A stretch of 64,000 bases of DNA from Candidatus Firestonebacteria bacterium RIFOXYD2_FULL_39_29 (GCA_001778375.1 MFGV01000018.1:47022-111021); one strand, 5' to 3'. Shown: positions 4,590 to 61,574, counted from the first letter of the stretch. Notes: a model not told the origin generated them from the letters alone. Translations and numbers: made by a program.

Positions 4590-5957
4590 TCAGTGAAGCT
4601 TTACATCGATGTTTTTAGAACTTTCCCTATATAATACAGCAACCAACGCCGATAAAAACCAGAAAGGTTCCATAACTCTTACGATAATAAAAGTATTCGC
4701 GGTCAGAGCGTGAAATAAAAGTGCAATGAAAGAAACGGAAAATCCAAAAGCAATTGATTTTGTAAACTCAGTCTGACATATTTTGTACGTCTTGTAGCCC
4801 ATTTTGTAAATGGCAAAAACCATCCAGCAAAACAATGCAAACCCGATAATGCCAACTTCGCCAAGCACTGTAAAATATTGACCGTCAATAAAACTTACTC
4901 CGGTCACACCATAGCCGGTAAGCAGATGCTTTGGAAGCTTCACTGTTACGAGATTCTTCCAGCTCTCAATTCTGGCCATACTTGATTCATCAAAATTAAC
5001 TTTTCCCGCTCCTGTGTCTATCTGCCTGCCTTGAAAGGTTTCACGCACCCGTTCGGTAATGTTTGCAGGGAGAATCAAAGGCACAATGACAACCGCCGCA
5101 AGTAATACTAAGAAATACGTTAACCTGTTTTTTTTAGTTAGAAACAGAGTAAACAGAATCATTATCCCAAATGCGATATAGGAAGCTCTGGACAATGTTT
5201 GCCAAAAAGGCGGCATAATAAAAGCAAAACCCGCCAACGCAAGAAGTTTTTTTATCTTATTTTTATAGTTTAATATGACAGCTGTGAAAATCGCCAACGC
5301 CATAATAAAATAGCCGCCTAAACTAGCAGGTTCACCGGCAGTTGCCACAACCCCGATCGGATCTTCAAAAGGCGCAGTTATTCTTTGGCCTGAGCCAAGC
5401 TGAGTATAACCATAAGCAGTTACAATAACCAGTGTTACAAGCGCTGCAAAGAGATAGCGCTTCACTTCCTTTTCATCTTTTACGACGTTGCTGACCATGA
5501 AATAGATCAGAAAGTATTCAACATACTTCAATACGTAGAAAAACCCCTTTACAAAATTTACATCTCCGATAATTACTCCTTTCAGGGTAAAAACAACACA
5601 CGCTAAAGTATAAGCTACAACAGGGACATTTAAGGGTGAGCTTTTCAGAAGACCTGTTGTTTTATCTATAGCTATTTTTGCAAACCAGGCAAAGAATACT
5701 ATAATGAGAATAAAATCATCAACTCTCAAGACAACATCCCGTCCGGGAACAGAAGCAAGCTTGATTTCCGGGGAGAGCATCATGGAAAAAACAAGAATAT
5801 AAATTCCAAACTCTATTCTGAAAAATGCGATTATTCCGACTAACAGTCCGAGGATTATACCGAGCAAGACACCTGAGTTGGCTTGAGGGATTAAAAAGGC
5901 GATAAAGAGGGCTATCAGAGCAAATACTGCAAAAAAAACCAGCTTATACTTAGCCAT
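4590..5957 (-). CDS. O-antigen ligase / Wzy-like polymerase family membrane protein
   Basis: 455-aa polytopic membrane protein with a large periplasmic loop late in the protein, an architecture shared by O-antigen ligases and Wzy polymerases. It is part of a Wzx/Wzy/Wzc/Wza gene set. Confidence 0.45.
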   Translation of the reverse strand: MAKYKLVFFAVFALIALFIAFLIPQANSGVLLGIILGLLVGIIAFFRIEFGIYILVFSMMLSPEIKLASVPGRDVVLRVDDFILIIVFFAWFAKIAIDKTTGLLKSSPLNVPVVAYTLACVVFTLKGVIIGDVNFVKGFFYVLKYVEYFLIYFMVSNVVKDEKEVKRYLFAALVTLVIVTAYGYTQLGSGQRITAPFEDPIGVVATAGEPASLGGYFIMALAIFTAVILNYKNKIKKLLALAGFAFIMPPFWQTLSRASYIAFGIMILFTLFLTKKNRLTYFLVLLAAVVIVPLILPANITERVRETFQGRQIDTGAGKVNFDESSMARIESWKNLVTVKLPKHLLTGYGVTGVSFIDGQYFTVLGEVGIIGFALFCWMVFAIYKMGYKTYKICQTEFTKSIAFGFSVSFIALLFHALTANTFIIVRVMEPFWFLSALVAVLYRESSKNIDVKLH

Positions 5958-7803
5958 CTTTGGGGTCTTTCTTTTCTTCTCTGTAGTATCTGGAACTGTA
6001 ATAATAACTGCCGTAATGCGGCATCATTTTAATGTTAACATCGTTCAGAACTATGCCGAGAATATTGGCATGAACATTATCCAGCTGGGATTTCGCGCGC
6101 CTTAAGGCAAGTTTGGAAGTACGGCCTGCTTGATATATAAGTACAACGCCATCAACTTTTGAAGCAAGTATAGTGGAATCCGCAAAAAGAAGGACAGGAG
6201 GGCAATCAAAAATAACCAGATCAAAATTTGCTTTAAGTTCCGTAAGTAAATTATCAAGACTCGCGGAACTTATAATATCAACCGGGTTTGTGTACATTCT
6301 GCCGCAGGTAATGATCTTCAGGTTCTCAATCCCGGGAACTTTAATAATATTATCCAGTTTGAGCCCGCTCATTAAAATATCGGAAGTCCCTTTAAGCGCT
6401 TCTTTCCAGGTAATATTCCCGAGTAAAACATCGGAAAGCCCGTTTTCCCTCGGAAGCCCGAATATCTTATTTATAGAAGGCCTTCTTAAGTCCGCTTCCA
6501 CCAGCACCACCTGCATGCCTGCTTCTGCCGAGGAAAGAGCATAATTAATAATTGAAAAGGTCTTACCTTCCGCAGGACCAGAGCTTGTAAAAATCAATGA
6601 TTTATTTTTATTTTTAGCCACCATGAAAGAGATATTTGTCCTAAGAGTATGATACGCTTCGACAAGTACTGACTTCGGAGAGTACCAGAGTATAAGATGT
6701 CTTTTTAAATAAGCGTCTTTATCTTTTTTCTTAAACAGGCGTCCCAGCAGTCCGCCTTTTTTTTCCAATTCGTCCGTGGCTTTGGGAATTATTCCGACAA
6801 CAGGAAGACCAATAAAGCTTTCCAGATCCTCAACCGAGCCGATAGTGGTATCAAGACTTTCCATGAAAAACGCCGCCACCGAGCCTATTATTATACCGAG
6901 AAGCAAACCAATTATCATATTTAACTGTTTATTCGGCCTTAGAGGATATTTTGCCGCCATGGCTTTGTTTACAATAGTCGAAGTTTCGACTTTTCCGGCT
7001 TCAGCTATTTCAGCTTCCTGATATTTGGTCCTGAGATTATTGTAGAGGGATTCATTAATAGAAACTTCCCTGCTGAGTCTTATAAGCTCACTATCCTGTT
7101 CCGACAGGTCTTTTATTTTTTCTTCCACGTACTTTATCTCTTCTTTTTTCTTTTGTACTTCCGGGTGCTCTTCCGTATACTGGCGCTTTAGCGCAGAAAT
7201 CTGGGAATTAAGTTCAATAAGCTTACTGGCATAGGCCTGCGCCATACCCGAGATACCGCCTTTGGATTTAAAAACTTTTAAGCTGTCTTCCGCCTTGAAA
7301 AGTTCCTTCTCCTGCTGTGCCAGCTGTATCTGAATGTATTTTTTCTGCTCTTTTTCTGCCTTGCTTTTTTCTTCAAAACTCTTTTCTATATAGCATTCCG
7401 CAATGGCATTCACGAGCATAGCGGCTACTTCTGCTTTATCAGAATAACCGGTAATCTGTATCATATTGGAATAACCGATTTGCTCCACCTCCAGCTCCCC
7501 CATAACATCCATGACGCTTTTATTGGATCTGGTTTTTATAAGAGCTCTTCTTATCACATCTTCACTCTTAACTATTCTGATTTCCGAGCCGATTGTATCC
7601 ACGCCCATACTTGGCATCATCATATTATTTTCCGGCACACCTATTTTAATAGAAGAACTTGCCTTGTAGACTGCCTTTTGCAGGTCGGTAAAAATATAAG
7701 TGGCAACCAGAAGAACAATAGAAGTGAAAAGTATAATATATTTATGCTTAGTTAACGTACGCCAGTAATCGTATATTGTCAGCTCTTCTGTTTCTATGAC
7801 CAT
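5950..7803 (-). CDS. wzc: Polysaccharide co-polymerase / BY-kinase (Wzc/GumC-like: chain-length determinant plus CpsD-like tyrosine autokinase)
   Basis: The N-terminal TM, long coiled coil and second TM are Wzz-like. The C-terminal P-loop ATPase has a Walker A (TSSGPAEGKTFSIINYALSSA) and Walker B (VVLVEADLRRP), and a Tyr-rich tail (YGSYYYSSRYY) ends the protein. The ORF track starts at 7839, but a strong RBS (GGAAGGAG) precedes the Met at 7803, and the upstream Met codons lie inside an inverted-repeat element. I therefore propose the start at 7803. Confidence 0.7.
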   Translation of the reverse strand: MVIETEELTIYDYWRTLTKHKYIILFTSIVLLVATYIFTDLQKAVYKASSSIKIGVPENNMMMPSMGVDTIGSEIRIVKSEDVIRRALIKTRSNKSVMDVMGELEVEQIGYSNMIQITGYSDKAEVAAMLVNAIAECYIEKSFEEKSKAEKEQKKYIQIQLAQQEKELFKAEDSLKVFKSKGGISGMAQAYASKLIELNSQISALKRQYTEEHPEVQKKKEEIKYVEEKIKDLSEQDSELIRLSREVSINESLYNNLRTKYQEAEIAEAGKVETSTIVNKAMAAKYPLRPNKQLNMIIGLLLGIIIGSVAAFFMESLDTTIGSVEDLESFIGLPVVGIIPKATDELEKKGGLLGRLFKKKDKDAYLKRHLILWYSPKSVLVEAYHTLRTNISFMVAKNKNKSLIFTSSGPAEGKTFSIINYALSSAEAGMQVVLVEADLRRPSINKIFGLPRENGLSDVLLGNITWKEALKGTSDILMSGLKLDNIIKVPGIENLKIITCGRMYTNPVDIISSASLDNLLTELKANFDLVIFDCPPVLLFADSTILASKVDGVVLIYQAGRTSKLALRRAKSQLDNVHANILGIVLNDVNIKMMPHYGSYYYSSRYYREEKKDPKDG

Positions 7804-7828
7804 TAAGGCTCCTTCCATAAAGATATTT

Positions 7829-8040
7829 ACAATTGACAATTTAATGTAGTATTATTTATAAAACCACCTAAAACTATTGTTACACGTAGCACGTTACTCA
7901 GGTTATCAGCCCAGGTGGATTTCGCAAAGGACTCATGGTTTTACATATAAACCTTTGCTCAACTCCCTCACTGTTTTTCACAATTTGGCGGGGCTTTTTC
8001 CCGCCTTCATTAAATTGTCAATTGTAAATCGTAAATTTCT
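7829..8040. mobile_element. TIR-flanked intergenic cassette (MITE-like) 1
   Basis: Left arm ACAATTGACAATTTAATGTAGTATTATTTATAA and right arm TAAATTGTCAATTGTAAATCGTAAATTTC are inverted repeats. The interior carries 60-bp element copy A, a GC hairpin GGCGGGGCTTTTTCCCGCC, and the TTCATTAAATTG motif. Confidence 0.45.
7908..7967 (+). repeat. 60-bp intergenic repeat element, copy A
   Basis: CCCAGGTGGATTTCGCAAAGGACTCATGGTTTTACATATAAACCTTTGCTCAACTCCC, consisting of a palindromic head (CCAGGTGG) plus a 7-bp stem GCAAAGG/CCTTTGC around a ~25-nt loop. Confidence 0.7.
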
Positions 8041-8049
8041 TTTCTGCGC

Positions 8050-8733
8050 TTACCTGAAAAGCAGTATTATCGTTACTACTGTTGATGCAAGGTAGACCGT
8101 CGGCATTACATTATTCAAAAACCAGTTCCAGCCGGCCACACCTTTTTGCGGAACATAAACTATATCATCGGGTTTAAGTTGAATATCCTTCTTCAGCTCG
8201 CCTTTTGTTATTACATCTTCCATGTTCACTTCTAATATGGTTCTCTTATCTCCCGTGCCCCTGAATACTTTTACCTGAGATAGCTCGGCTTCTATTGAAA
8301 AGCCGCCCGCTAAAGATACCAGTTCAAGCACGGTAATACCGTCACGGTAATCATAACTTCCTGAACCTTTTGCCTGCCCCATGACATAAACCTTGCGCTT
8401 GCCGAATTCTTTCAATGTTACTGAAACCACTGGTTTTGTAACGTATTTTTCATATTCTTTTTCAATTCTGCTAGAAAGCTCTTTCAAGGTTATCCCTGAG
8501 GCCTGGATTTCACCTATAAGTTTTAATGTTATCTTACCATCACTTTGCACCTGCACTTCTTTGGAAAGATCGTCGGTGGGAGTAATTACAATATTTAATG
8601 TATCTCCGGCTTTAATAGTGTAGGTCGTAAAGCTTTTATTAAAATCCGAAGAAATGTCTTTTGCACTCTGAGCCACTGCTGACGTTACAAACAGCAGCGA
8701 AATTAGAACTAATAATTTTTTCATCATAGTCAT
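8050..8733 (-). CDS. wza: Polysaccharide export protein, Wza-like (Poly_export + SLBB domains)
   Basis: A signal peptide (MTMMKKLLVLISLLFVTSAVAQS) is followed by a Poly_export-like motif (YTIKAGDTLNIVI) and beta-grasp repeats. It is adjacent to wzc. Confidence 0.55.
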   Translation of the reverse strand: MTMMKKLLVLISLLFVTSAVAQSAKDISSDFNKSFTTYTIKAGDTLNIVITPTDDLSKEVQVQSDGKITLKLIGEIQASGITLKELSSRIEKEYEKYVTKPVVSVTLKEFGKRKVYVMGQAKGSGSYDYRDGITVLELVSLAGGFSIEAELSQVKVFRGTGDKRTILEVNMEDVITKGELKKDIQLKPDDIVYVPQKGVAGWNWFLNNVMPTVYLASTVVTIILLFR

Positions 8734-8930
8734 CTCCTTCTAAATTCGATTCCACTTCCGCCAGTTATATTTGGCGGATCTCTCGTAGAGATTACAAAGC
8801 TACAGGATTCCACTGATACAAACACCAGACACTGGATCCCCGATAAAAACACTCGAGGATGACAAAAACACATCACGAAAGCTTATAGCAAGTTTTTGTC
8901 ACTTTCTTCCCTTTCTGCACTTGCTTCTTC

Positions 8931-8990
8931 CGCCTAGGCGGATTTCGCAAAGGGTTCATGGTTAGATATTTATACCTTTGCTCAACTTGC
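8931..8990 (+). repeat. 60-bp intergenic repeat element, copy B
   Basis: CCGCCTAGGCGGATTTCGCAAAGGGTTCATGGTTAGATATTTATACCTTTGCTCAACTTGC. Confidence 0.7.
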
Positions 8991-9026
8991 TGTGCCTCTG
9001 CGCATCTGCTCTTCCGAGCATCTGTT

Positions 9027-10157
9027 TCACTCAGTCCACCATTTGTGCATGGAAATTTCCATAAGACCTTTTTTATCAAGCCCTGAAAGTTTATCCTCGT
9101 CTACTGCGTCACTTATTTGTGTCATGGCGTTTTCCAGTAAATTCACATACTGCGGCTTCTCCTGATATACTCCGTCTCTGTCAAAAATAACTTCTACTAC
9201 CGGACGGGTCGGGAATTTTTTATTTGCCTTGATTACAAAGCCTATTTGACCGCTGTTAAGACGCACATAACTTCCGGGCGGATAGATAGACAGTTCTTCT
9301 ATTAATTTTTTCACCACAGAATGCTCGAAAACTTCGTCAGAGGACCGTATGAACATTTTAAGCACCTCATGAGGAAGCTTCCTCTCCCGAAGTTTGCGGG
9401 GATGGGACAGACCTTCATAAATATCAACAAGACCTATTACCTTTGCCATTTCGTTAAGCTCTTTAGTATCATAAATACTGCCCGCAAAATCCTTTGTCTG
9501 TATCTGCTCGTAAATTTCCCTTGTAAGCCTCTCATTGTCGCGCTGTTTTATGACTCCTTTTGTCAAATCAATATGTGTCCCGCCCCAGGCTTCGTGAAGC
9601 AACGCAGACGTTCCAAGAAAGAGTGATTTCTCTTTTGAATAAGTAAGACCCAGCCCTAGTCGAATTGCAAGAATACAAGTATTAGACAAATGAGAATACA
9701 TCGTATTATCATTTGTAGTTTTTGCAGTCAAAACAAGAAGTTCATCATTACCTTTTTCAAGTTCTTCCAGCACCACCTCTACTACGTTTTCCGCGCTGCT
9801 TTTTACCTCAGCAAAATCACCTTTGCCATTCAGGGCTACAGTTTCCCGAGAAAAATTTATAAGCATTTTATAGGTACTTAAAGCCCGTTTTTTTTCGGCA
9901 TCTTTACGAAAAGGAGAAATTACAGTTTTATTTTCCACAATCCTTTGAGGAACTTCTATTTCTTTTTTAGGTTCACCGGAAACAACAGGAGTAACGGGAG
10001 AACCACAAGGTACCGAAGAGCACAGTCCTTTCTCAATGAGAGGACTTTTGAATATGCTCGTACCCGGCGGTTTTAACTCAGGGACCAAAGGCACAGTTTC
10101 CACAGGCGGTTCAACCGGCTTCGGCGGTCCCTTGGGCATTATTTTCGATAGTTTCAT
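9027..10157 (-). CDS. Hypothetical protein with a Pro-rich N-terminus and a degenerate HD/HD-GYP-like region
   Basis: 376 aa. The segment ...LHEAWGGTH...VDIYEGLSHPRKLRERKLPHEVL... resembles the C-terminal D-x-[FY]-[DE]-A-L...R-x-Y motif region of HD-GYP domains. A clean metal-binding HD dyad is not evident. Confidence 0.25.
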   Translation of the reverse strand: MKLSKIMPKGPPKPVEPPVETVPLVPELKPPGTSIFKSPLIEKGLCSSVPCGSPVTPVVSGEPKKEIEVPQRIVENKTVISPFRKDAEKKRALSTYKMLINFSRETVALNGKGDFAEVKSSAENVVEVVLEELEKGNDELLVLTAKTTNDNTMYSHLSNTCILAIRLGLGLTYSKEKSLFLGTSALLHEAWGGTHIDLTKGVIKQRDNERLTREIYEQIQTKDFAGSIYDTKELNEMAKVIGLVDIYEGLSHPRKLRERKLPHEVLKMFIRSSDEVFEHSVVKKLIEELSIYPPGSYVRLNSGQIGFVIKANKKFPTRPVVEVIFDRDGVYQEKPQYVNLLENAMTQISDAVDEDKLSGLDKKGLMEISMHKWWTE

Positions 10158-10177
10158 AAAACCCCACTGAAAACAAA

Positions 10178-10205
10178 TTACTAAGTACTAATGACTACTA
10201 ATTAT
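10178..10205. repeat. Solo copy of the cassette-2 type inverted-repeat arm
   Basis: ATTACTAAGTACTAATGACTACTAATTATT resembles the TIR arms of cassette 2. It lies just past the stop of ORF 9027..10157. Confidence 0.35.
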
Positions 10206-10435
10206 TGAGGTTATTATATACATTATAACAACCTCAAACAGTTTTACTTACTATATTATATACAATATCAATTACATTAACAATTCCAAAATTTGTCCAA
10301 AAGCACCTTTTGGACTGATGGCACAGATCTTAACCGCGATGACACAGATATAACCTATTTATTCTTCTATTTTTACTCAAATATCTTATCAACGCTTCTT
10401 TTTCGAGTTTCAAATTTCTAATTTCGAGTTTATAC

Positions 10436-11545
10436 TTACTCTACTTTCCTTCCCACTCTCATAAGGACAACTATTATTCCAAATATCAGGACAGCCTGAA
10501 AAAGTAATAACAGAGCTTCTTTCTCTGATGCACGGGTCAAAGCCAGAGCTGAAAGCCCCAGAATTAGATTTAACACGTAAAGAAAAATCACCGTCGCCTT
10601 CTGAGAGAATCCGATATGCATTAAACGGTGGTGAAAATGGTCTCTACCGGTAAACTCTATCCACTCTCTTAAGGTAGAGACAGAACCGTTTTTAATTCTG
10701 GAGATGGTCGTATAAAGCATGTCAAATATTGGAATTCCCATAATAAGTACAGGCATTGCCACACCTATCATGACATTATTCTTATCCCATACTCCAATAA
10801 TGGAAAAACTTGCAAGAAGGAAACCGATAGTTGACGAACCGGAATCACCCAAAAATATTTTGGCAGGCTTAAAATTAAACAGAATAAATCCGATAGAAGC
10901 CCCGAGAAAGGCCAGAAGAAGATATGAAAGTTCAAGCTGTCCGGATATATATATTATTGCAAAAAAACCGAGTCCTGAGACAATCCCGAGACCCGCAGCC
11001 AGACCATCGACCCCGTCAAGAAAGTTAACCGCGTTAATTATACCTACTACCCAAAATACGGTCAGAAGATAATCAAAAAAGACAGAACCCGGAAATTCAG
11101 GAATGACGGTAATATAGACTCCGGATATTATCAGGATAATAACAGCAACCACCTGAGCCCCAAGCCGGAGAAAAGCAGAATTGCTTTTTATATCATCCAG
11201 GAACTCCGCTGCGAAGACAAGTACCAGCCCGGACAAAAGGCCTATGACCTCTTTAGGAAAATGATAATTCCTCCCGACTGCAATAAGAAAAGCAAGAAAT
11301 ATTGCCAGCCCTCCGATTCTCGGTATCGGCTTTAAATGAATCTTTCTGTCATTTGGAATATCAAGGATACTAAATTTAAATGCAACTTTGATCGCGAGAG
11401 GGGTAAATATTACGGCAAGAAGAAAAGCAAGAAGCAGAACATAGATGCTTCTGAGATTGTTAGCATAAAACCAGGTTCCGCCAAACGGCATTAAAAGATA
11501 AAGAGCGCCTGCTCCAGCAGAGAAATACAGTATTTTTTTTATCAT
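10436..11545 (-). CDS. wecA: UDP-GlcNAc:undecaprenyl-phosphate GlcNAc-1-phosphate transferase family (WecA/TagO, GT4 MraY-like)
   Basis: 369 aa with ~10-11 TM segments. Diagnostic motifs are present: NAVNFLDGVDGLAAG, and DD..D-type loops (FLGDSGSSTIGF, LDD). Confidence 0.75.
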   Translation of the reverse strand: MIKKILYFSAGAGALYLLMPFGGTWFYANNLRSIYVLLLAFLLAVIFTPLAIKVAFKFSILDIPNDRKIHLKPIPRIGGLAIFLAFLIAVGRNYHFPKEVIGLLSGLVLVFAAEFLDDIKSNSAFLRLGAQVVAVIILIISGVYITVIPEFPGSVFFDYLLTVFWVVGIINAVNFLDGVDGLAAGLGIVSGLGFFAIIYISGQLELSYLLLAFLGASIGFILFNFKPAKIFLGDSGSSTIGFLLASFSIIGVWDKNNVMIGVAMPVLIMGIPIFDMLYTTISRIKNGSVSTLREWIEFTGRDHFHHRLMHIGFSQKATVIFLYVLNLILGLSALALTRASEKEALLLLFQAVLIFGIIVVLMRVGRKVE

Positions 11546-12159
11546 CTAAACTTTGTCAGCTCCAGCCTTAGAGGCATAAAACCCTCGGCGTATTTTACCC
11601 GGTTTTGAACTCCGCGAAATATCGCATTAGCTTCCGCATTTTTTAAAATGCTAAGTCCGGGAACTTTTGTTTTATGAACCTGCGAAGAATGCGCCTTCAA
11701 GAGCTCGAACTTGCGATTTATTACGGAAGTTATATTAACATAAGCTACCGGTAAAAACTCAATAGAGGAAGGCACTTCATAAAAAAGCACATTTTTTTGA
11801 TATCTGGCAGCTGTTACAACCGCCGTCGAAATATTACGATGGTCCTGATGCGTATCATTATTATAAGGTACAAAAATAATATCTGGTTTTATTTTAGTTA
11901 TTTCTCTTTCCATAATCTGGATCAGTTCTCTATTTAACTCCACTCTTGTATCTATTAAACCGCCCCAGTGCAATTTTGCATGCAAAATCTTTGCGACTTT
12001 ATCCTGTTCTTTTATTCTTTTTCCCGAATCACCGCCGGCCTGCCCCCGGGTCATTATCAAAAGATTAATATCATATTTTTTTTCTTTTGCAATGAGCAAA
12101 GCGCCGCCGCAACCAATCTCTATGTCGTCAGGATGAGGACCTATTGCGAGTATACGCAT
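11542..12159 (-). CDS. PIG-L/LmbE family N-acetylglucosaminyl deacetylase
   Basis: N-terminal signature ILAIGPHPDDIEIGCGGAL plus a downstream HQDH. It overlaps the wecA start by 4 nt, suggesting translational coupling. Confidence 0.7.
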   Translation of the reverse strand: MRILAIGPHPDDIEIGCGGALLIAKEKKYDINLLIMTRGQAGGDSGKRIKEQDKVAKILHAKLHWGGLIDTRVELNRELIQIMEREITKIKPDIIFVPYNNDTHQDHRNISTAVVTAARYQKNVLFYEVPSSIEFLPVAYVNITSVINRKFELLKAHSSQVHKTKVPGLSILKNAEANAIFRGVQNRVKYAEGFMPLRLELTKFR

Positions 12160-12394
12160 AATAACTCCTTTGAAATAACGCTTTTCCTTTGTTTGCCTGC
12201 ATAAATTCGAAACTCTAAACAGAAAATAACTAAGGTCTAAGCACTAAATTCTAAACAAACAAAATATACTTAATAACTAAATCTTAAACAAAATCGTTGA
12301 ATTTATACCAATAATCCTATTTTCAATCTTCAATTCGCAAGATCTTTTCACTTTACAAACTTTAAAAACCTTACAAACCTTATAAACTTTCAGT

Positions 12395-13201
12395 TTAATC
12401 CGCTCCGCCTAATGAATCTATCGCTTCCTGCACTACAAACATATCTATCTGCGGGAGTGTTTTACCGTACGCTACCATAAGAGCCATATCGCAAATCTGA
12501 TTAATTCTTCTCGGGATTCCACCTGAACGAAGATACAAGAGATTAATGGCATCCGCAGTAAATATTTCCTTTGTCGCACCTGCTACTTTCATCCTATATT
12601 TTATATAATCCGCCGTGTTTATTGAACTTAAAGCATCGAGGTGGTAACGCATCGCTATTCTTTGCGACAATTGTTTATTAGATTCAAGTTTCTCCCGAAG
12701 TTCCGGCTGACCTATTAAAAGTATCGTTACCAGAAATTTATCTTCGAGCTGGATATTAAGAAGCAGTCGAATTTCTTCAAATACCCTAACATCTTCTATC
12801 GTATGCGCCTCATCTATTACAATTACAGTCTTCTTCTTGTCTCTCCAGTTATTTGCAATGAGCCTTTCAAGCGTAATAAGGATATCTGATTTTCTGACAG
12901 GAAGTTCGGGCGCTCCCAGGTTATGAGCTATCAAACGAAGCAAATCAATATCTTCCACTCTTGGATTGGTAATGAAAGCCACTCTATAAATATCTTTTTC
13001 CAGCTCCATATTAAGAGCACGGGAAAGAAGCGTCTTACCGCAGCCAAAAACTCCTGTTAAGAGCCCCAGCCCTTTTTCTTCACGAACTACATAAAGTAAG
13101 CGGGAAAGCGCTTCTTCATGCTGAGGAGAAAGATAAAAAAATGCCGGATCCGGCGTATTCTCAAAAGGTTTTTTCTGTAATTTCCAATAATCTAAATACA
13201 T
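12395..13201 (-). CDS. ExeA-like AAA ATPase
   Basis: Walker A (LLTGVFGCGKTLL) and Walker B (VIVIDEAHTIE) with a C-terminal helical region. This family is commonly associated with secretion and polysaccharide loci. Confidence 0.5.
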   Translation of the reverse strand: MYLDYWKLQKKPFENTPDPAFFYLSPQHEEALSRLLYVVREEKGLGLLTGVFGCGKTLLSRALNMELEKDIYRVAFITNPRVEDIDLLRLIAHNLGAPELPVRKSDILITLERLIANNWRDKKKTVIVIDEAHTIEDVRVFEEIRLLLNIQLEDKFLVTILLIGQPELREKLESNKQLSQRIAMRYHLDALSSINTADYIKYRMKVAGATKEIFTADAINLLYLRSGGIPRRINQICDMALMVAYGKTLPQIDMFVVQEAIDSLGGAD

Positions 13202-13220
13202 GATTTCCTTTGAAAAGAAA

Positions 13221-13358
13221 ATTGACTAAGTACTAATGACTATTGACTATTTATGGTAAGAGGAAAACAGCCTCCTCCAATATTTAATTTTTTCTTAAAT
13301 AGATGCGGCGAAAGCTCTTTTTCGCCTTCATTAAATAGTCATTAGTCACTAGTAATTA
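13221..13358. mobile_element. TIR-flanked intergenic cassette (MITE-like) 2
   Basis: Left ATTGACTAAGTACTAATGACTATTGACTA and right TAAATAGTCATTAGTCACTAGTAATTA are inverted. The interior has hairpin GGCGAAAGCTCTTTTTCGCC followed by TTCATTAAATAG. Confidence 0.45.
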
Positions 13359-13730
13359 TTTTTTATTTCCTATCGATGTCATCATCGCAGTCTTTATATA
13401 TTTAAAATCAAACGGCTTAAAGATGCAGTCGTAAGCCCCAAGCCTGAAAGCAGAAACCACTCTTTCCGCGTCCCTGAAAGCAGTAATCATTATCACAGGT
13501 ATTCCCGGGTTTATTTCTTTAATATTCTTAAGTACTTCTATACCGTCAATGTCCGGAAGTTTAATATCCAAAAAGACGAGAGTGGGCTTTATTTCTTTAA
13601 ATTTCGTTATCGCATCACGTCCGAGTTTTGCTATATCCGTCTCGTATCCCTCTTTTTTGAGAAATATCGTCAAAACATCGCATATATCCTGTTCGTCATC
13701 AACAACTAGTATCATAATAGGCTCCTTCAC
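13356..13730 (-). CDS. Single-domain response regulator (CheY-like receiver)
   Basis: 124 aa. It has the acidic pocket (VVDDE), the phospho-acceptor context (FLDIKLPDIDGIEVL), and a conserved T/K region. Confidence 0.7.
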   Translation of the reverse strand: MKEPIMILVVDDEQDICDVLTIFLKKEGYETDIAKLGRDAITKFKEIKPTLVFLDIKLPDIDGIEVLKNIKEINPGIPVIMITAFRDAERVVSAFRLGAYDCIFKPFDFKYIKTAMMTSIGNKK

Positions 13731-13992
13731 AATCGTAAATTAGAAGCACTAAATTCGTCCGTTTAAAGCGAGATCTCGCCGTAGGCGGAAAACTCGAAAC
13801 TCGAAACAAAACCGATAAAAATACAAGGAGCTAAACGTTAGAAATAGACCTTTTTTTTCTGTTCTTGCTTCTTTTACTTCTTCTACTTCCCCTGCTTTCC
13901 TTGCTTCTTATTGATTTTAACAAAGTTTTCCAAAAAATGCAATATATATCAGCATTTTTACAATATTCAGGGTTTACTTATGTCCGTTTCAT

Positions 13993-14763
13993 TTAATACT
14001 TTCCGATGCTTCCGGTTTTTCCGGCGTGTTTGACTGCAAGTTTAAAAGCATAAAAGGCAGCAGGCAAAACAACTATAGAAAATATTAAAAGGAACATAAT
14101 GCTTGACTGCGGCGACCAGGAAAGAGAACTTTTAAAGCCAAACCCGATACGGATGAGTTCAAGAGCATGTGTTATTGGATTTAGCAATGAGAGTTTAAGA
14201 AGCCAGCCGGAGAGAACGCTGACCGGGAAAAACACACCTCCCAGCAGAGTAAGAGCTGCATTTAAAAGAAAATTTATGGGATCACCTCTTTTAAAAGCCA
14301 TTATAAATGAAGCTGAAATGATTCCCAGTGCAGCCAGGGAAAAAAGCCCCAGAACAACACCGGAAAGCAGCAGAAATAGATTTATTTCACCCGGTAGCGG
14401 AATAAAAAACAAAGCCCCAAGATAGATAACTGTTTCCAGAAACCCATAAACCAACGGGTATGAAACCACTCCGGAAAGAAGGCTGAAATTACTCTTTGAA
14501 GAAAGAAACAAGCTTTCCATTGTTCCATAGAGCTGTTCTTTTCTTAGCCCCTCCGAAAATGCATTCAGCGGGACAAGCAGTAAATTTGCAAAAATAATCC
14601 CGAGGAACACCGACAAAAAGAAGGCACCGCTTTTTTCAAGCCAGAAGCCCATAAAGTAAAATATGGAAAGATACAGATACATACCGGCCAGCTTTAAAAT
14701 AAAAGCCAGCTTATAATTTTTCTCTATCCGAAAATCCCTTTTAATAAATGCCCGCGCACTCAC
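13993..14763 (-). CDS. ABC-2 type transporter permease
   Basis: 256 aa with 6 predicted TM helices. It overlaps the start of the downstream ATPase gene by 4 nt. Confidence 0.45.
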   Translation of the reverse strand: MSARAFIKRDFRIEKNYKLAFILKLAGMYLYLSIFYFMGFWLEKSGAFFLSVFLGIIFANLLLVPLNAFSEGLRKEQLYGTMESLFLSSKSNFSLLSGVVSYPLVYGFLETVIYLGALFFIPLPGEINLFLLLSGVVLGLFSLAALGIISASFIMAFKRGDPINFLLNAALTLLGGVFFPVSVLSGWLLKLSLLNPITHALELIRIGFGFKSSLSWSPQSSIMFLLIFSIVVLPAAFYAFKLAVKHAGKTGSIGKY

Positions 14764-15389
14764 AGACCCAGCTCCCTGACCTTGTATTTTATGCCTCTAA
14801 AATCTGTTTCATTGTGCGTTGCAATTATGATGGTATTTTTATTTTTAAGCAGAAGCTTGAGCAGCTCGATAAATATTTTTTTTGCCGTTTTATCCAGACC
14901 CTTTAGCGGCTCATCAAAAAGACATATATCCGGATGATGTATCAATGTTTTAGCAATAGAAATTCTTTGCTTCATGCCAAGAGAACAGTTCTCGACAGGA
15001 AAATCAATATAGCTCTCCATTTTCAGACGTTCACTCAGTTTTTCGATACGATCTGAAATAGTTTTAGCATCCACATTGTAAAGTTCTGCAAAAAATTCCA
15101 GATTCTGTCTGCCCGTCAATTTAAAATATAAAGCTCGCTCCTCTGCACCTAAATAGCCAATCTCTCTTCTTGCCGCCGCCGGAGACAAGCCGTTTAGCAC
15201 TACTTCCCCTTTATCAGGGATAAGAAGACCTGATATTATTTTCAGAAGAGTGGTTTTACCCGAACCGTTTTTGCCGGTAAGAAGAAGCAGTTCGCCCGGC
15301 TTTACGGTAAAAGATAAAGACCGGAAAACAGAAAGCTTTTCCTTTCCCTTCTTGAAACTTTTCGATATTTTGATTACCTTAACGGACAT
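14760..15389 (-). CDS. ABC transporter ATP-binding protein
   Basis: Walker A (LLTGKNGSGKTTLLKIISGL), an LSGG-like signature (CSLGMKQRISIA) and Walker B (ICLFDEP). RBS AAGGATGG precedes the start. Confidence 0.7.
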   Translation of the reverse strand: MSVKVIKISKSFKKGKEKLSVFRSLSFTVKPGELLLLTGKNGSGKTTLLKIISGLLIPDKGEVVLNGLSPAAARREIGYLGAEERALYFKLTGRQNLEFFAELYNVDAKTISDRIEKLSERLKMESYIDFPVENCSLGMKQRISIAKTLIHHPDICLFDEPLKGLDKTAKKIFIELLKLLLKNKNTIIIATHNETDFRGIKYKVRELGL

Positions 15390-15400
15390 AGGCCATCCTT

Positions 15401-15577
15401 AGTATTGACAATTGACGATTTACGATTGACAATTTAATGTAGTATTATTTATAATGCACTTGTTAAATTAGCTTTACAAGTTCGTGATATTAAATTCAAT
15501 TCGGCGAATCGTTTCATTTCGCCTTCCTAAAATTGTCAATTGTAAATCGTCAATCGTAAATTTCATTTGATTAAGTA
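15401..15577. mobile_element. TIR-flanked intergenic cassette (MITE-like) 3
   Basis: Left TTGACAATTGACGATTTACGATTGACAATTTAATGTAGTATTATTTATAA and right TAAAATTGTCAATTGTAAATCGTCAATCGTAAATTTC are inverted, and the left arm is shared with cassette 1. The interior hairpin GGCGAATCGTTTCATTTCGCC is followed by TTCCTAAAATTG. Confidence 0.45.
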
Positions 15578-16390
15578 GTCCTTAATCATCTTAAACTTCA
15601 GACTCCAGGTATCGGCTATTAATACAGGAATGAGGTAGCCGTAGAAAGCAGACCTTTTATCGTATTCTATTTTTAAAGCCGACTCCAGATTATATTTGAT
15701 CAGTTTATCCGCAAGCCCTGTACTTATATTATACTTTAATCCTATGTTGTTTTGCCAAAGTTTACCGCAGAGCTCTACGGGTAAAAACACAGCTCGGAAA
15801 ACCCCTTTTTTCTTTGCGAGGGTTTCTACTTTTTCCATGTTAATTCTCTTGGTCTTTAAAAACTCATTAATATCAACGAGTTTTGAGATATCGTAAAAAG
15901 AATGGGTCATGGAAGCATGCAGACAAAGATGGAGCAGATTATATTCGCAATTCAGAACTCTAACTTTTTGACCTCCGATTTTCACCTTTGCCGTATGTAA
16001 AAGTAACTCTTCGACCGGCAAAATATTTTTCAGCACTCCCAGTTCGCCGGCCAGCTCCACTTCAAGCCCGTTTACATCAGTCATCACGGTCACAGTTTTG
16101 TTAGATTTTTTCTTATCTTCCCTGAAACCCTCTTCATACAGGGACCGGACGGCTGCCAAACTGTCTTTTTCCGCCACAATAATATCTATATCGCTCAAAT
16201 ATCTGGCACCCGCGGGATAAATATCAAAAGCAAGGTAACCACCCTTTAATACCGCGTAATTTATTTTTTTATTATTTAAAGCCTTTACTATTTTCGGGAA
16301 CTTCCTTTGGAAATACAGGAACCGGTTTTTCTCCCTCTTTTTTAACTTCTCCAAAACCAGGCGGTTTTTTCTGCTGATACGTAGATTCAA
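15563..16390 (-). CDS. Putative nucleotidyltransferase (uncharacterised NTP-transferase family, NTP_transf_5-like)
   Basis: 275 aa. N-terminal region (...YAVLKGGYLAFDIYPAGARYLSDIDIIVAE...) has the G-x(n)-R-x-x-x-D-[IL]-D pattern of minimal nucleotidyltransferases. Confidence 0.3.
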   Translation of the reverse strand: MNLRISRKNRLVLEKLKKREKNRFLYFQRKFPKIVKALNNKKINYAVLKGGYLAFDIYPAGARYLSDIDIIVAEKDSLAAVRSLYEEGFREDKKKSNKTVTVMTDVNGLEVELAGELGVLKNILPVEELLLHTAKVKIGGQKVRVLNCEYNLLHLCLHASMTHSFYDISKLVDINEFLKTKRINMEKVETLAKKKGVFRAVFLPVELCGKLWQNNIGLKYNISTGLADKLIKYNLESALKIEYDKRSAFYGYLIPVLIADTWSLKFKMIKDYLIK

Positions 16391-16548: not shown

Positions 16549-18666
16549 TCAGCTCCCCTTCTTTAGTTTTTCCAGATATTTTAAAGCAATCTTGTTCGAC
16601 GGGTCCAGACCAAGAGCTTTTTCAAGTTCAAGCTCCGCCAATTTGGCCTTTCCCTGTTTAAGATGAAGCACAGCCAGCCCTATAAGCGCGTTTATATTTC
16701 CCGGCTCCAGTTCAAGACCTCTGCACAAATTATATTCCGCTTTTGCTAGATCGCCTTTTTCTGACTGTACAACACCCAGATTAGTATAAGCTTCGGCAAA
16801 ACCGGGCCGCATTGAGACCGCTTCTTTAAAATAGTTTTCAGAGGCTGCAAAGTTCTTCTGTTTATATGAAGCAATACCCGCGCTTAACAACGTAAACGCA
16901 TTTTTATATTTCCCCGCAAAATCCAAGGCTTCGCGGTAAAGCCCTGTTTCTGTAAGCTTTCTTGAGACATTCCCCGTAAAATAATCCAGTTCTCCCGCTC
17001 TTTCCGCAGAAAGGAGAAAGTATTTGACGGCCCGGTCTTTATCTTTAAGGTTATTATAATACTCCGCCCGAAAATAGAAGTATTGCGCGGAAAGATCCCG
17101 GAGAAGATAATCGCTAAATTTTTCTATTTTATCAAAATCCCCGTATGAAGACCAGAGCCGGTCTATTTCCGTTTTTCCGGAAGCCGGTCCTTCCGCAAGA
17201 TACAGCACACCTTTGGGTACAGAAGCAATACCTGAGTTCGAGAGATAACTTCCGAGCGTAAAATATGTTTTTCCCGGAAAATTCCGGAGAAGATCCATTT
17301 GCACGGTACTTCTTACGCTGTTTTTTTCAACGTCAGAAAGCCGTACAAAGTCCTCTCCATAAATATTCTTAAAAATACAACCGATGTCATCATAGATAAA
17401 GAGATCAGTTCTGAGTTTTTCAACTTTATTAAGATATACCAGGGGAAACATGATATTGTCGCCGTAGCAAAAGAGCAGGGAACCTTCAGGCAGGGTCTTA
17501 AGTACATTTACATTAAAATTATACGCAAGTTCTGTTTTATCTAAACGCGCAGTATTTACGCCGGAGACCGCAACCGGAAGAAGGAATACGGAAAAAATAA
17601 GTAATGCCGGTAATTTGTTTTTCTCATAGAGAAAAACAAAGCCGGCAAACACAAGGATGGCTATACCCAGAAAGGACAGCATGCAGAAAACTTTAAATGT
17701 TTCAATATTTTTGTAATCCGTATCCGTGTTAAGTACCAACAGAAGAATTAGACCTGAAAAAACCAGAAAAATAACGGGTAAGAGTAATATGTTCTTCTTT
17801 TTATACAGGCAATAAACCCCTAGAACAGCTGCCAGAAGGAAAGCATAATATTCTTTGAACACCAGTTCAAAAAATACCGCTATTTCTGCAAACGCGCGGT
17901 TAAAAGAAAAAGCATTTGCGGTTAACGCCCCGTACTGTCCTCTGACTATATGATATACCGTTCTTTCAATGTTATGCGGATTACCCCAGTTAATCAGTGG
18001 ATTTGCAGAAGCCCTTACAGGCAAATACAAATACAGAGCTCCCGCAACCATAACCGTTATCACGGAAAAAACCAGAGTTTTTATAAACCAACCGTCTTTC
18101 CTGTCCGTTATGATCAAATAAAACACAACCGGCACCAGAAAAAGTGACGTATGATGATTGGCAAGCGCCAGTCCCATAAAAAGACCCGCCAAATATAGAA
18201 ACCTGATATTTTTTTTATAGGAATATTTTAAGACTGCAATTAATAAAAGAACTGCAAGAAAAGCGTTAAGCGTGTAGATCCCCCCCTTGGCCTGCAGGGC
18301 TTGCGAAAAATATACGGTTCCTAAAGCAAGCGTGACCGAGGAAAATAGTGCAGGGAGCGCATATTGCCTGCTAAAAAGAGAATTAAGCAGAATAAATAAT
18401 ACCGTACAGGCGAGGGAACCAAAAAATACCGCCATAATATTAACCCGGAAAGCGATACTTGCCAGAGGCAGAAACGTGAACAGTTTGCCAAGAAGCGTAA
18501 AAAGCGGATACCCCGGAGGATGCGCAATCCCGAGTCCGTAGCAGGCGGTTATCAGCTCACCTGAATCACCCACATAAACCGTAGGGCAGACAAAGGGCAA
18601 AAATACAGTCAATGTAATAAAAAAAACAAAAACTGCGGTATACTTAAAATATTTGACTCCCATCAA
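16549..18666 (-). CDS. DUF2723 (TMEM260-like GT-C glycosyltransferase-family) membrane protein with C-terminal TPR repeats
   Basis: N-terminal signature VYVGDSGELITACYGLGIAHPPGYPLF is characteristic of DUF2723. About 11 TM helices follow, then 4-5 TPR motifs (AEAYTNLGVVQSEKGDLAKAEYNLCRGLELEPGNINALIGLAV...). Confidence 0.6.
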   Translation of the reverse strand: MMGVKYFKYTAVFVFFITLTVFLPFVCPTVYVGDSGELITACYGLGIAHPPGYPLFTLLGKLFTFLPLASIAFRVNIMAVFFGSLACTVLFILLNSLFSRQYALPALFSSVTLALGTVYFSQALQAKGGIYTLNAFLAVLLLIAVLKYSYKKNIRFLYLAGLFMGLALANHHTSLFLVPVVFYLIITDRKDGWFIKTLVFSVITVMVAGALYLYLPVRASANPLINWGNPHNIERTVYHIVRGQYGALTANAFSFNRAFAEIAVFFELVFKEYYAFLLAAVLGVYCLYKKKNILLLPVIFLVFSGLILLLVLNTDTDYKNIETFKVFCMLSFLGIAILVFAGFVFLYEKNKLPALLIFSVFLLPVAVSGVNTARLDKTELAYNFNVNVLKTLPEGSLLFCYGDNIMFPLVYLNKVEKLRTDLFIYDDIGCIFKNIYGEDFVRLSDVEKNSVRSTVQMDLLRNFPGKTYFTLGSYLSNSGIASVPKGVLYLAEGPASGKTEIDRLWSSYGDFDKIEKFSDYLLRDLSAQYFYFRAEYYNNLKDKDRAVKYFLLSAERAGELDYFTGNVSRKLTETGLYREALDFAGKYKNAFTLLSAGIASYKQKNFAASENYFKEAVSMRPGFAEAYTNLGVVQSEKGDLAKAEYNLCRGLELEPGNINALIGLAVLHLKQGKAKLAELELEKALGLDPSNKIALKYLEKLKKGS

Positions 18667-20450: not shown

Positions 20451-20536
20451 ATACCCCGCCCTTGTTTTTTTCTAAGTTCCTAATCTTTTCCTTTTCTTGC
20501 TGTATTTACTGTTCTTGCTTTGTTTGCTGTACTTGC

Positions 20537-22786: not shown

Positions 22787-22894
22787 TTTTTTACTTTTCA
22801 GCTGCTTTTTCTGTATCTACTGTTGGTGCTTTACTTTCTGTTTTTGCTTTACCTGCTTTTCCTGTCCTTGCTGTCTTTGCTTTACTTGCTTCTT

Positions 22895-50938: not shown

Positions 50939-51212
50939 ACAATATTATATACCATCTCCCATATTACAGTAATTATACAACATTTTTTGTACTCTGTAAT
51001 GTATTTTTTTAAACATTGGTCAATATTAGATTACACCTTAAGTTTGCAGGGTTTTACTGAATTAAGTATGACGGGAAGCAGGGGAAGTAAAAGAAGCAAA
51101 TACAGTAGAAGAAGTAGAGGAAGTGCAATCAACAAAAGAAGAAAAGAACTGATTTTTAATAGGATTTTTACTGAATGGCTTTCGTAACTTTTATTACTTC
51201 ATTTTCTTCATC

Positions 51213-51270
51213 CGCCCAGGTGGATTTCGGAAAGAAAAGTTGTTAGATATTTAGACTTTCCTCAACTCCC
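51213..51270 (+). repeat. 60-bp repeat element, copy C (giant-gene leader)
   Basis: CCGCCCAGGTGGATTTCGGAAAGAAAAGTTGTTAGATATTTAGACTTTCCTCAACTCCC. The 3' flank (ATTCCTTTGCTTCTTTTACTTCATTTACTT) is shared with copy D. Confidence 0.65.
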
Positions 51271-51509
51271 ATTCCTTTGCTTCTTTTACTTCATTTACTT
51301 CGTTTTCTGCATTTGCTTCACTTGCTTCCTTCCTCAGCTTCTCCTCGGGAATCCCGTGCAGGAGGGCTGCTTGATAGGCCCTGCATTGCATTTCCCGCAG
51401 GCAAGGGTGGAGGTTTCAAATATTTTTTGCGATTTTAAAGCAGGTTTTTGATATTTTGTTTTTTTAAGCTTCTTTTTTTTTCTCATTTTGCCACCTTATC
51501 CCGATTTTT

Positions 51510-51568
51510 CCGCCTAGGCGGATTTCGCAAAGATTTATGGTTTGATATTTAGACTTTCCTCAACTCCC
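51510..51568 (+). repeat. 60-bp repeat element, copy D (giant-gene leader)
   Basis: CCGCCTAGGCGGATTTCGCAAAGATTTATGGTTTGATATTTAGACTTTCCTCAACTCCC. Confidence 0.7.
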
Positions 51569-51647
51569 ATTCCTTTGCTTCTTTTACTTCATTTACTTTT
51601 TCTGCTTTGCTTGCTTCCCCTACTTCTCTTTTCCCACTTTCATCATC

Positions 51648-61567: not shown

Positions 61568-61574
61568 GTACTTA

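Follow-up and report, generated by a model that had tools for sequence, protein, structure and literature searches.

A modular family of hairpin-and-heptad repeats at gene junctions in Candidatus Firestonebacteria

Intergenic repeats such as repetitive extragenic palindromes (REPs), bacterial interspersed mosaic elements (BIMEs) and MITEs (miniature inverted-repeat transposable elements) have so far been characterised in a limited number of bacterial groups. In Proteobacteria, REPs, BIMEs and REPINs are mobilised by the REP-associated tyrosine transposase (RAYT), a HUH transposase of the Y1 type, and roles in mRNA 3'-end protection and attenuation have been proposed for them. The Correia (NEMIS) elements of Neisseria are bounded by fixed terminal inverted repeats (TIRs) of 26 bp and by a TA duplication, and the palindrome-associated transposable elements (PATEs) derived from IS200/IS605 have left and right ends that are asymmetric, and their target is a tetranucleotide. 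Intergenic heptanucleotides repeated in tandem have also been described, namely GGGAATC in Xanthomonas and GGGGAYT in Nostoc, and are over-represented in Calothrix as well; their function is not known (PMC4692102). Here we analyse a window of 64,000 nucleotides from Candidatus Firestonebacteria bacterium RIFOXYD2_FULL_39_29 (MFGV01000018.1:47022-111021), in which three hairpin-bearing cassettes, hereafter C1, C2 and C3, and one solo arm occupy gene junctions (Table 1).

The conserved module is the half-unit, comprising a hairpin, a tail and an array of heptads, and not the whole cassette. The family to which it belongs is small, modular, non-coding and specific to the Candidatus Firestonebacteria lineage, so that this candidate phylum, for which metagenomes are the sole source, possesses a repeat system of its own, a hairpin followed by exactly four degenerate heptads. 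On balance, its sequence features suggest that this family probably acts at the RNA level, as punctuation between the cistrons of operons, and we infer that in C1 and C3 this punctuation is combined with a strong sigma-70 promoter facing inward.

The cassettes and their half-units

An earlier note on this DNA had described the three cassettes and the arm at 10173-10197. All four are present and far exceed chance. A repeat finder recovered the inverted arms of C1 at 7825-7849/8005-8029 (25 nt, 96%), of C3 at 15404-15442/15523-15561 (39 nt, 85%) and of C2 at 13214-13244/13334-13364 (31 nt, 77%; 31-52 nt and 75-77% across the repeat-finder matches). As had been noticed, the left arms of C1 and C3 are near-identical (37 nt in common at 97%) and C1 carries a copy of an element of about 60 bp, here a 59-nt repeat (7906-7964 versus 8929-8987, 83% identical). 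The hairpin with its tail, CGCCTTCMTWAAAWWGTCA, occurs exactly three times in the window, compared with 0.27 expected from shuffled sequence, and its orientation is uniform, always on the plus strand with the genes on the minus strand. Also compared with shuffled sequence, a 20-nt arm word occurs four times (0.05 expected) and an arm word of the TGACTAA type five times (0.09 expected). Pattern searches confined the arm words and the hairpin-tail motif to the cassette sites. Six heptad arrays of at least three units are found in the window and none in 100 shuffles; Tandem Repeats Finder places arrays of period 7 at 8011-8037, 10176-10197, 13221-13251, 13336-13358, 15404-15434 and 15530-15562. 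The literal tail motif that had been proposed, TTCMTTAAAWTG, is exact in C1 and has one mismatch in each of C2 and C3.

An nhmmer profile built solely from copies outside the window recovered the right half-units at 7982-8037, 13302-13363 and 15498-15566 on the plus strand, with E-values from 5.5e-16 to 1.5e-14, and the left unit of C2 at 13285-13217 on the minus strand as a full-length match to the model (E 3.7e-9). The solo arm (10197-10173, E 0.038) was recovered too, as was the left arm of each of C1 and C3, with no other hairpin unit or TNGTMAW arm anywhere in the 64 kb.

In the aligned copies, a half-unit begins with about 6 nt of the form AAWWTY, followed by the hairpin, the tail TTCATTAAA, the heptad arm and a T-rich run (TTTCTTTT). 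The hairpin, GGCG(N)...(N)CGCC, is 18-21 nt long, with a stem of 6-7 bp and a T-rich loop (58% T on the plus strand). The stem shows compensatory changes, its fifth pair being G:C in 27 copies, A:T in 11, T:A in one and C:G in one. The right arm comprises exactly four heptads in 34 of the 46 distinct copies, a full arm being 28 nt long. When all arrays in 374 kb of non-redundant collected sequence are counted, 62 have four units, 12 have three and two have five, and arrays of two units number 22 versus 12 expected by chance. The heptad consensus, T-N-G-T-M-A-W, was derived from 124 heptads that were not constrained by the search pattern. In these, G at position 3 is invariant, T at positions 1 and 4 shows one change each, and position 6 is A in 107. 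Positions 2 (A 60, C 35, T 29), 5 (C 70, A 54) and 7 (A 56, T 60) vary freely. There are two main flavours, TAGTCAx/TAGTACT in C2 and the solo arm and TTGTCAA/TCGTAAA in C1 and C3, together with mixed arrays.

Half-units are assembled into cassettes in two ways, and about ten copies are solitary; the copies measure 57-212 bp. Cassettes of the TAGT type, including C2, consist of two outward-facing half-units (arm-tail-hairpin ... hairpin-tail-arm) around an AT-rich interior, which in most copies measures just 23-41 nt and therefore has no room for promoters. In cassettes of the second type, a promoter-like P-module (consensus TTAATGTRKTATTAT) is combined with a right half-unit. Its left array may be of the same flavour, as in C1 and C3, or of a different one, such as the 9-mers AAGTCCATA or the heptads CACGTTA or TGATAAC, so that copies with unrelated left arrays have no TIR. 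The cargo is variable. C1 holds ACGT-type heptads, a flavour also present at 62580-62620 and in the collected loci L004, L049, L027 and L050, and the 59-nt element. At 62580-62641, upstream of a PorV-like gene (61644-62555) and outside the range of the earlier note, there is a related promoter-like module, the third P-module of the window, which has no GGCG hairpin; it recurs as the left part of L004, of L049 and of L027. The 59-nt element is a dispersed family of its own, with further copies at 55498-55556 and in L003, L012, L016, L018, L048, L050 and L063. It is also seen at 8927-8990 and in three copies within 50939-51671. Relative to genes it is found in either orientation. Its sequence on the gene strand is GAGTTGAGCAAAGG...CCTTTGCGAAATCCGCCTAGGCGG, which includes two small hairpins, and Rfam has no match to it.

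The left and right arms of one element have their flavour in common (permutation p = 0.0006), whereas no position-wise covariation between arms was detected within the TAGT flavour (permutation p = 0.94). Both arms are arrays of one degenerate unit, and this accounts for their appearance as inverted repeats. Selection of the arms for pairing, or a recent inverted duplication, was dropped as an explanation because there is no such position-wise matching. The reverse-complemented arms were also considered as arrays of -35 boxes, a reading that was rejected since the key G of TTGACA falls on a variable heptad position.

Other short periodic arrays are found at gene junctions. Purine-rich arrays of period 9 directly follow stop codons on the gene strand at 20451-20536, 22787-22894, 62658-62702, 12350-12390 and 13850-13910, and also at junctions of L020, and T-rich heptads (CTTGTnn) precede Shine-Dalgarno (SD) sequences in the window and in L020. 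These arrays are distinct from the hairpin units and form a general junction grammar in these genomes. Short periodic arrays thus pad gene junctions throughout the lineage, with the cassettes as the most elaborate case.

Distribution, insertion and conservation of the family

The exact pattern GGCG-N9-15-CGCCTTCMTWAAAWWGTCA was searched in 185,579 genomes, one per species, and returned 17 loci. Sixteen are in two metagenome-assembled genomes (MAGs) of Candidatus Firestonebacteria, 14 of them on 13 contigs of RIFOXYA2_FULL_40_8 and two in a second MAG. The remaining locus, in GC-rich coding DNA of Chloroflexota, lacks every other feature and is a chance match. The same pattern gave 43 further loci in the JGI metagenomes and no copy in viral contigs. 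The dispersed, multi-copy nature that had been attributed to the family is therefore confirmed, with 14 exact-pattern matches in a single MAG and 46 distinct copies overall after genome and metagenome copies were de-duplicated, and these copies are spread over many unrelated loci and contigs. With 16 of the 17 genome matches in one phylum, the pattern provides a clean signature for Firestonebacteria contigs in metagenomes. Literature searches found no report on repeats in Candidatus Firestonebacteria. Rfam 15, at gathering and at permissive thresholds, holds no family that fits the cassettes and gave nothing meaningful at E<5 in 7700-16000.

This distribution also bears on whether the cassettes could be ordinary promoters and terminators that look alike through convergence of intergenic signals in an AT-rich genome. 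GC hairpins are generic in AT-rich spacers, and TTGACA and TATAAT are the normal promoter words of this organism. Nevertheless, loops, tails, heptad arms and flanks are alike nearly base for base at unrelated loci, an identity that largely refutes convergence. Moreover, in most copies the direction of the hairpins is the wrong one for the genes beside them, and the other intergenic spacers of the window are without the motif. We consider this explanation hardly credible.

The cassettes occupy exactly the stretch that separates one gene's stop codon from the SD sequence of the gene after it, and leave the flanking proteins intact. The wzc of the window has orthologues at 93, 88, 77 and 67% identity, the one at 88% being from Candidatus Firestonebacteria. 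The junction between wza and wzc measures 246 nt in the window, with C1, and 234 nt in L018 (93%), where other modules are found, namely an inverted 59-nt element and TTACGGG heptads with no GGCG hairpin; it measures 32 nt in L020 (77%) and 3 nt in L021 (67%). At the junction between the response regulator and the AAA_22 ATPase, the window has C2 and L020 has 78 nt of 9-mer arrays; in L021 the two genes overlap, and in L018 this junction is outside coverage. Since orthologous loci at a greater distance have these junctions empty or overlapping, the cassettes have the appearance of insertions. The C-termini of Wza and of the response regulator are unchanged between filled and empty junctions, so insertion took place exactly after the stop codon; a truncation of the upstream gene, with the arm supplying a new stop, was rejected for both genes for the same reason. 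Insertion turned compact operon junctions of 0-30 nt into structured spacers of 140-250 nt. In L019, which comes from the second MAG of Firestonebacteria, a fragment resembling an integrase core of the IS3/IS481 type, as read from a translation by eye only, takes the place of the gene upstream of wzc (880-1370). If this reading is correct, one and the same junction has been struck by different mobile DNA in different strains.

Filled and empty orthologous junctions are what the earlier note's proposal of a MITE would predict. As classical MITEs, the cassettes would be deletion derivatives of an insertion sequence (IS), moved in trans by a DDE transposase acting on their TIRs. They are indeed small, non-coding and present in multiple copies, C1 to C3 and the TAGT-type copies have inverted arms, and near-identical copies lie at unrelated loci, such as L001 and L014, whose hairpins are near-identical, loop included. 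However, target-site duplications were sought at the arm ends and none was found at any of the more than 20 copies inspected. The outer flanks AAAAGAAA ... TTTCTTTT are inverted and not direct, and, being conserved as well, they belong to the element and do not represent a target duplication. The protein-family matches of the window genes include no transposase, and no transposase or IS partner is recognisable in the collected loci. A tblastn search of 510 kb of collected sequence for an IS200-like gene, which was a weak test with an approximate TnpA query, returned only a spurious weak match in a CarboxypepD_reg/T9SS protein (T9SS, type IX secretion system). No convincing pair of arms 0.4-3 kb apart that could bound an autonomous element was seen. 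In addition, TIRs are not a defining feature, as many copies are single-armed or have unrelated left ends (9-mers, CACGTTA heptads), and the arms themselves, made of four degenerate heptads, vary from copy to copy in the order of their units and show no pairwise covariation. Orthologous copies are also conserved well above synonymous sites. The proposal was therefore not upheld: cut-and-paste transposition of a MITE is an unlikely route of spread, and a classical MITE identity is, in our estimation, very unlikely.

Conservation was evaluated in two orthologous cassette pairs from different genomes, in comparison with third codon positions of the flanking genes. The cassettes of L006 and L039 are 83.9% identical, including a 22-nt indel, versus third-codon-position identities of 0.52-0.53, and those of L004 and L049 are 87.5% identical, versus 0.49-0.64. 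The hairpin and arm parts reach 90-97% in 60-nt windows. Between orthologous arms, the only differences are substitutions at variable heptad positions or a one-heptad shift, and the number of units remains four. For example, the arm is TTGTCAA TCGTAAA TTGTCAT TTGTCAA in L004 and TTGTCAT TTGTCAA TCGTAAA TCGTCAA in L049. In a third pair, L012 and L035, the left part has been replaced and the hairpin unit retained. This pattern suggests that the cassettes are under constraint, and purifying selection, or strong concerted evolution, appears to fit it better than decaying selfish DNA does. As orthologous copies are conserved above the neutral rate, they are probably functional.

The position of the half-units relative to genes is narrowly defined. 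The outer end of the right arm lies at most 25 nt from a stop codon on the opposite strand in about 27 copies, and in a few, such as the receiver gene at C2 and some metagenome copies, the stop codon is inside the arm. In six copies, the right arm lies approximately 17-24 nt before an ATG on the same strand, with an SD sequence in between. Left half-units and P-modules nearly always abut the SD sequence of the gene toward which they point, and the arms of the window that lie beside gene starts (wzc, the AAA_22 ATPase, the ABC ATPase and gene 9027-10157) are all sense, 15-26 nt from the ATG.

These distances weigh on a further explanation, in which the four-heptad arms act at the DNA level, as sites of the operator or iteron kind, to be bound by a regulator, by a nucleoid protein or by a recombinase marking the boundaries of gene cassettes in variable loci like this polysaccharide cluster. 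The position-specific conservation of the heptads and their fixed number of four speak for such arrays, and would fit the protein-binding palindromic units that had been proposed as an alternative to MITEs. Furthermore, all seven half-units or arms of the window are within 8 kb of the exopolysaccharide (EPS) cluster, and the ABC-transporter pair, which L021 lacks, is bounded by C3 on one side. Nevertheless, with a period of 7 bp consecutive sites do not stay on the same helical face, there is neither a recombinase nor an integrase nearby and copies are scattered over many unrelated loci and contigs; the tightly fixed distances of the arms to stop codons and SD sequences point to RNA or translation. 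We regard DNA-level arrays as quite unlikely. With regard to the transporter pair itself (13993-15389), the syntenic L021 (1603-3052) has the NTP_transf_5 gene directly followed by the response regulator, and the second boundary of the pair in the window is an array-rich spacer (13731-13992). Integron attC sites were also rejected, as there is no integrase, there are no R/L core sites and the copies are scattered over many contigs.

Promoter-like sites and a candidate role on RNA

Two sites of the window illustrate the sigma-70-type promoters of the host, namely TTGACA-N17-TAAATT before a c-di-AMP riboswitch and the conserved promoter at 10283. The riboswitch (ydaO; 61429-61576, minus strand, 68 bits) is the only Rfam match in the window; it lies upstream of an amino-acid permease gene (59349-61367), and a canonical T-run terminator comes after it. 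In C1 and C3, the -35 element is the innermost heptad, and the promoter-like sites point to the hairpin, antisense to the operon. A promoter scan gave the site of C3 (15426-15455, plus strand) a score of 12/12, as the sole perfect match in 9.6 kb. The P-module AATGTRKTATTAT is retained in about 12 copies, several of which have an extended -10 (TGnTATTAT). The -10 region is AT-rich and nearly symmetric, the gene strand of C1 reading GTAACA-N17-TATAAA, so it is possible that the putative promoter of C1 and C3 is bidirectional and also serves the downstream gene.

In another reading, C1 and C3 are self-contained genes for small antisense RNAs on the + strand, each with a promoter, an RNA of approximately 70-150 nt and a hairpin terminator, that pair with the intercistronic operon mRNA. 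The sites facing the hairpin (TTGACA-N18-TATAAT in C3, TTGACA-N18-TATAAA in C1), the repeated occurrence of the P-module and the sequence UUCAUUAAAU after the hairpin on the + strand are all consistent with this. However, C1 and C3 have no conserved interior in common, nor does the interior have unusual structure (z = -0.5), the promoter directly abuts the hairpin in L002 and L003, which leaves no room for an RNA body, and C2 and other two-hairpin copies have no promoter and interiors down to 23 nt. Together with the absence of Rfam matches, this makes antisense RNA genes unlikely.

The arm described as solo exists, but it is not an orphan. It is sense-oriented, has its own hairpin (10205-10237) and is placed 19 nt upstream of the ATG that starts gene 9027-10157. 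Its promoter (10283-10255) is kept in the orthologous L018 as TTGTTT-N17-TATAAT, and L018 has an arm of the other flavour at the same place (1105-1132), in which all three aligned heptads differ at position 2 and T1, G3 and T4 are kept. The same order of promoter, hairpin, tail, arm and SD sequence ahead of a real gene is found in L009 and L061. Upstream of the 10283 promoter, the orthologous spacers at 10300-10345 and at L018 925-965 have a conserved block, ATCTGTGTCATCGCGGTTAAGATCTGTGCCATC, in which ATCTGTGnCATC is directly repeated and after which comes a CCAAAAGGTGCTTTTGG hairpin; it may be an operator for the wza-wzc operon.

The hairpins are not ordinary terminators of the flanking genes, as the earlier note had recognised: on the gene strand they are followed by AAATTG, GCATCT and GAATTG and thus have no U-tract. 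The U/A-rich tail is on the strand opposite the gene in about 34 of 44 copies. In copies between convergent genes (L006/L039, L007), the last element that each transcript would meet is a hairpin followed by the U/A-rich tail and the arm. Folding of the operon strand predicts that the arms of C1, C2 and C3 form stems of 22-30 bp (z -5.5 to -7.7).

In the RNA-level punctuation that we favour, the cassettes would be co-transcribed with the operon and would act on the transcript between its cistrons. The hairpin could be a decay barrier, a pause site or a weak terminator, and the AU-rich arm, by its fixed length, would set the distance from the hairpin to the flanking stop codon or SD sequence at about 37 nt; the arm may also be a binding platform with four registers. 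The left module of C1 and C3 would be a strong sigma-70 promoter firing toward the hairpin, antisense to the operon, yielding a short transcript bounded by the hairpin, or it would be a bidirectional promoter that serves the downstream gene as well. The family may have spread by a route that leaves no target duplication, such as single-strand transposition of the REP/RAYT or IS200/IS605 kind, or recombination between arrays.

Several observations weigh against this interpretation. Half-units occur in both orientations, right arms being antisense to genes in about 34 cases and sense in 10, and a single simple RNA function is hard to reconcile with this. Neither strand has a good U-tract after the hairpin; the terminator scan called no site on the plus strand and, with lenient settings, only C2 on the minus strand. 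Tallying G:U against A:C pairs in the hairpins does not distinguish the functional strand. The high conservation could derive partly from concerted evolution or gene conversion among copies and not from a function in the host, and the strict search pattern skews the sample toward one type of hairpin and tail. Finally, no mobilising enzyme was found, and the mechanism of spread is a guess.

A more specific variant is that the four-heptad arm is a platform for a multimeric or multi-domain nucleic-acid-binding protein, so that the operon punctuation would be read by a protein throughout the genome, or that the half-units are the ends of a new HUH-mobilised element of Candidatus Firestonebacteria. 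The TAGT flavour can be read as UAG-N4 four times over, and this spacing is the one that HutP-type antiterminators use. We consider this variant possible but doubtful.

Whatever their role, the elements mark operon sub-boundaries and produce spurious extensions of open reading frames (ORFs). The 36-nt extension of the wzc ORF, which had been ascribed to upstream ATGs provided by a cassette, does arise in the left arm of C1, but from TTG 7839 and not from an ATG. The in-frame ATG at 7818 is outside that arm and overlaps the ribosome-binding site of wzc.

The surrounding locus and the closest described systems

The cassettes lie in the upstream half of a minus-strand cluster for the export and biosynthesis of polysaccharide (Table 1), and all long ORFs with protein-family matches are on that strand.

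Table 1. Genes, cassettes and cassette parts (window coordinates)
Feature	Position	Strand	Remarks
Wzy_C	4590-5957	-	
wzc-like GNVR/AAA_31	5950-7803	-	start at C1: ATG 7803, SD 7809-7816
Cassette C1	7829-8040		between wza and wzc
C1 left arm	7824-7846	-	tail ACATTAAA and heptads TTGTCAA TTGTAAA on gene strand, toward wzc start; nhmmer E 0.0034; 96% inverted repeat
C1 promoter-like site	7833-7862	+	TTGACA-N18-TATAAA; faces hairpin, antisense to genes
C1 P-module	7843-7855	+	AATGTAGTATTAT; inside promoter-like site; pattern match
C1 interior heptads	7877-7902	+	ACGT-type, TTGTTACACGTAGCACGTTACTCAGG
C1 cargo	7906-7966	+	copy of separate 59-nt dispersed element; two small hairpins
C1 right half-unit	7987-8043	+	nhmmer E 5.5e-16
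C1 right hairpin	7987-8005	+	GGCGGGGCTTTTTCCCGCC
C1 right tail	8006-8014	+	TTCATTAAA
C1 right arm	8015-8035	+	three heptads
C1 T-rich run	8036-8043	+	TTTCTTTT; ends 6 nt before wza stop codon (8050-8052)
wza-like Poly_export	8050-8733	-	
Unknown protein	9027-10157	-	
Solo arm	10173-10197		between GT4 and unknown protein 9027-10157
Solo arm unit	10173-10237	-	hairpin 10237-10205, TAATTAG, heptads TAGTCAT TAGTACT TAGTAAT (10197-10177); 5' UTR
Promoter	10255-10283	-	TTGTTA-N17-TATAAT; sigma-70-type; upstream of solo-arm leader; promoter scan 10/12
GT4	10436-11545	-	
PIG-L deacetylase	11542-12159	-	
AAA_22 ATPase	12395-13201	-	
Cassette C2	13221-13358		between response regulator and AAA_22 ATPase
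C2 left half-unit	13222-13277	-	hairpin 13277-13260, tail TTACCATAAA, heptads TAGTCAA TAGTCAT TAGTACT TAGTCAA (13249-13222); ends 20 nt upstream of AAA_22 ATPase start (13201)
C2 right half-unit	13307-13358	+	hairpin GGCGAAAGCTCTTTTTCGCC 13307-13326, tail TTCATTAAA, heptads TAGTCAT TAGTCAC TAGTAAT 13336-13356; nhmmer E 1.7e-15; last heptad overlaps response regulator stop codon (13356-13358)
CheY-like receiver (response regulator)	13356-13730	-	
ABC-2 permease	13993-14763	-	
ABC ATPase	14760-15389	-	
Cassette C3	15401-15577		between NTP_transf_5 and ABC ATPase
C3 left arm	15405-15432		four heptads; on gene strand ends 15 nt before ABC ATPase start (15389)
C3 promoter	15426-15455	+	TTGACA-N18-TATAAT; perfect sigma-70 consensus; P-module inside at 15436-15448
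C3 right half-unit	15503-15568	+	hairpin GGCGAATCGTTTCATTTCGCC 15503-15523, tail TTCCTAAAA, four heptads 15533-15560, T-rich flank; nhmmer E 1.5e-14; NTP_transf_5 stop codon (15563-15565) 2 nt past arm
NTP_transf_5	15563-16390	-	
TMEM260/TPR glycosyltransferase	16549-18666	-	
Related module	62580-62641	-	P-module AAATAAATAATAACACATTGG, then AACGTGA-type heptads on gene strand; + strand reads AATGTGTTATTAT

Further features of the window deserve mention, all on the minus strand. A single ORF of 9347 aa (22895-50938), which holds a 327-nt tandem repeat in 10 copies at 45589-48859, probably encodes a giant repetitive surface protein; the genes neighbouring it carry T9SS sorting domains. The ORF at 18738-20450 fuses in frame a four-helix-bundle domain of the 23S_rRNA_IVP/bAvd-like kind (aa 8-111) with a PorV-like outer-membrane protein, the two parts being separated by 9- and 18-nt tandem arrays (20003-20051, 20115-20143). 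It may represent two genes with a spacer array that happens to have no stop codons. A pair consisting of an AbiEi antitoxin and an AbiEii nucleotidyltransferase toxin (a type IV toxin-antitoxin system, abortive infection) is encoded at 57513-59235.

Among the described systems, REPs and BIMEs are the closest analogue of the Firestonebacteria family, whereas classical MITEs are a poorly supported comparison. Like REPs, BIMEs and REPINs, the cassettes are built from short extragenic hairpins (here 18-21 nt) with a conserved single-stranded tail, in many copies per genome, and they occur as singlets and inverted doublets between co-directional or convergent genes within operons, with no target-site duplication. 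In contrast to REPs and BIMEs, the hairpins of Firestonebacteria carry a 28-nt arm of four heptads and a T-rich run, and there is no tetranucleotide of the GTAG type (GT[A/G]G), the conserved 5' flank being AAWWTY and the 3' flank TTCATTAAA. Some copies also carry promoter and cargo modules, the host phylum differs, and no RAYT gene was found in the 64-kb window. As the search for RAYT covers the window only and the flanking motif is different, membership of the REP/BIME family cannot be claimed.

The Correia elements are similar to the cassettes in their size of approximately 100-200 bp, their inverted ends, their location at gene junctions, their promoter-like sequences and the long stems formed in read-through transcripts. 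The cassettes differ in having no target-site duplication and in their arms, which vary, may be lacking on one side and do not covary. PATEs likewise have subterminal hairpins, no requirement for TIRs and no target duplication; unlike for PATEs, no TnpA was detected here, in the weak test with an approximate query described above. Lastly, the arms resemble the tandem heptamers and the cyanobacterial short tandemly repeated repetitive (STRR) sequences in being 7-nt, head-to-tail, intergenic units near a neighbouring ORF that vary in length and sequence between related genomes (PMC4692102). Whereas those described arrays are G-rich, near-perfect and of variable length, those of Firestonebacteria are AT-rich, degenerate at three positions, nearly always composed of four units and coupled to a hairpin.

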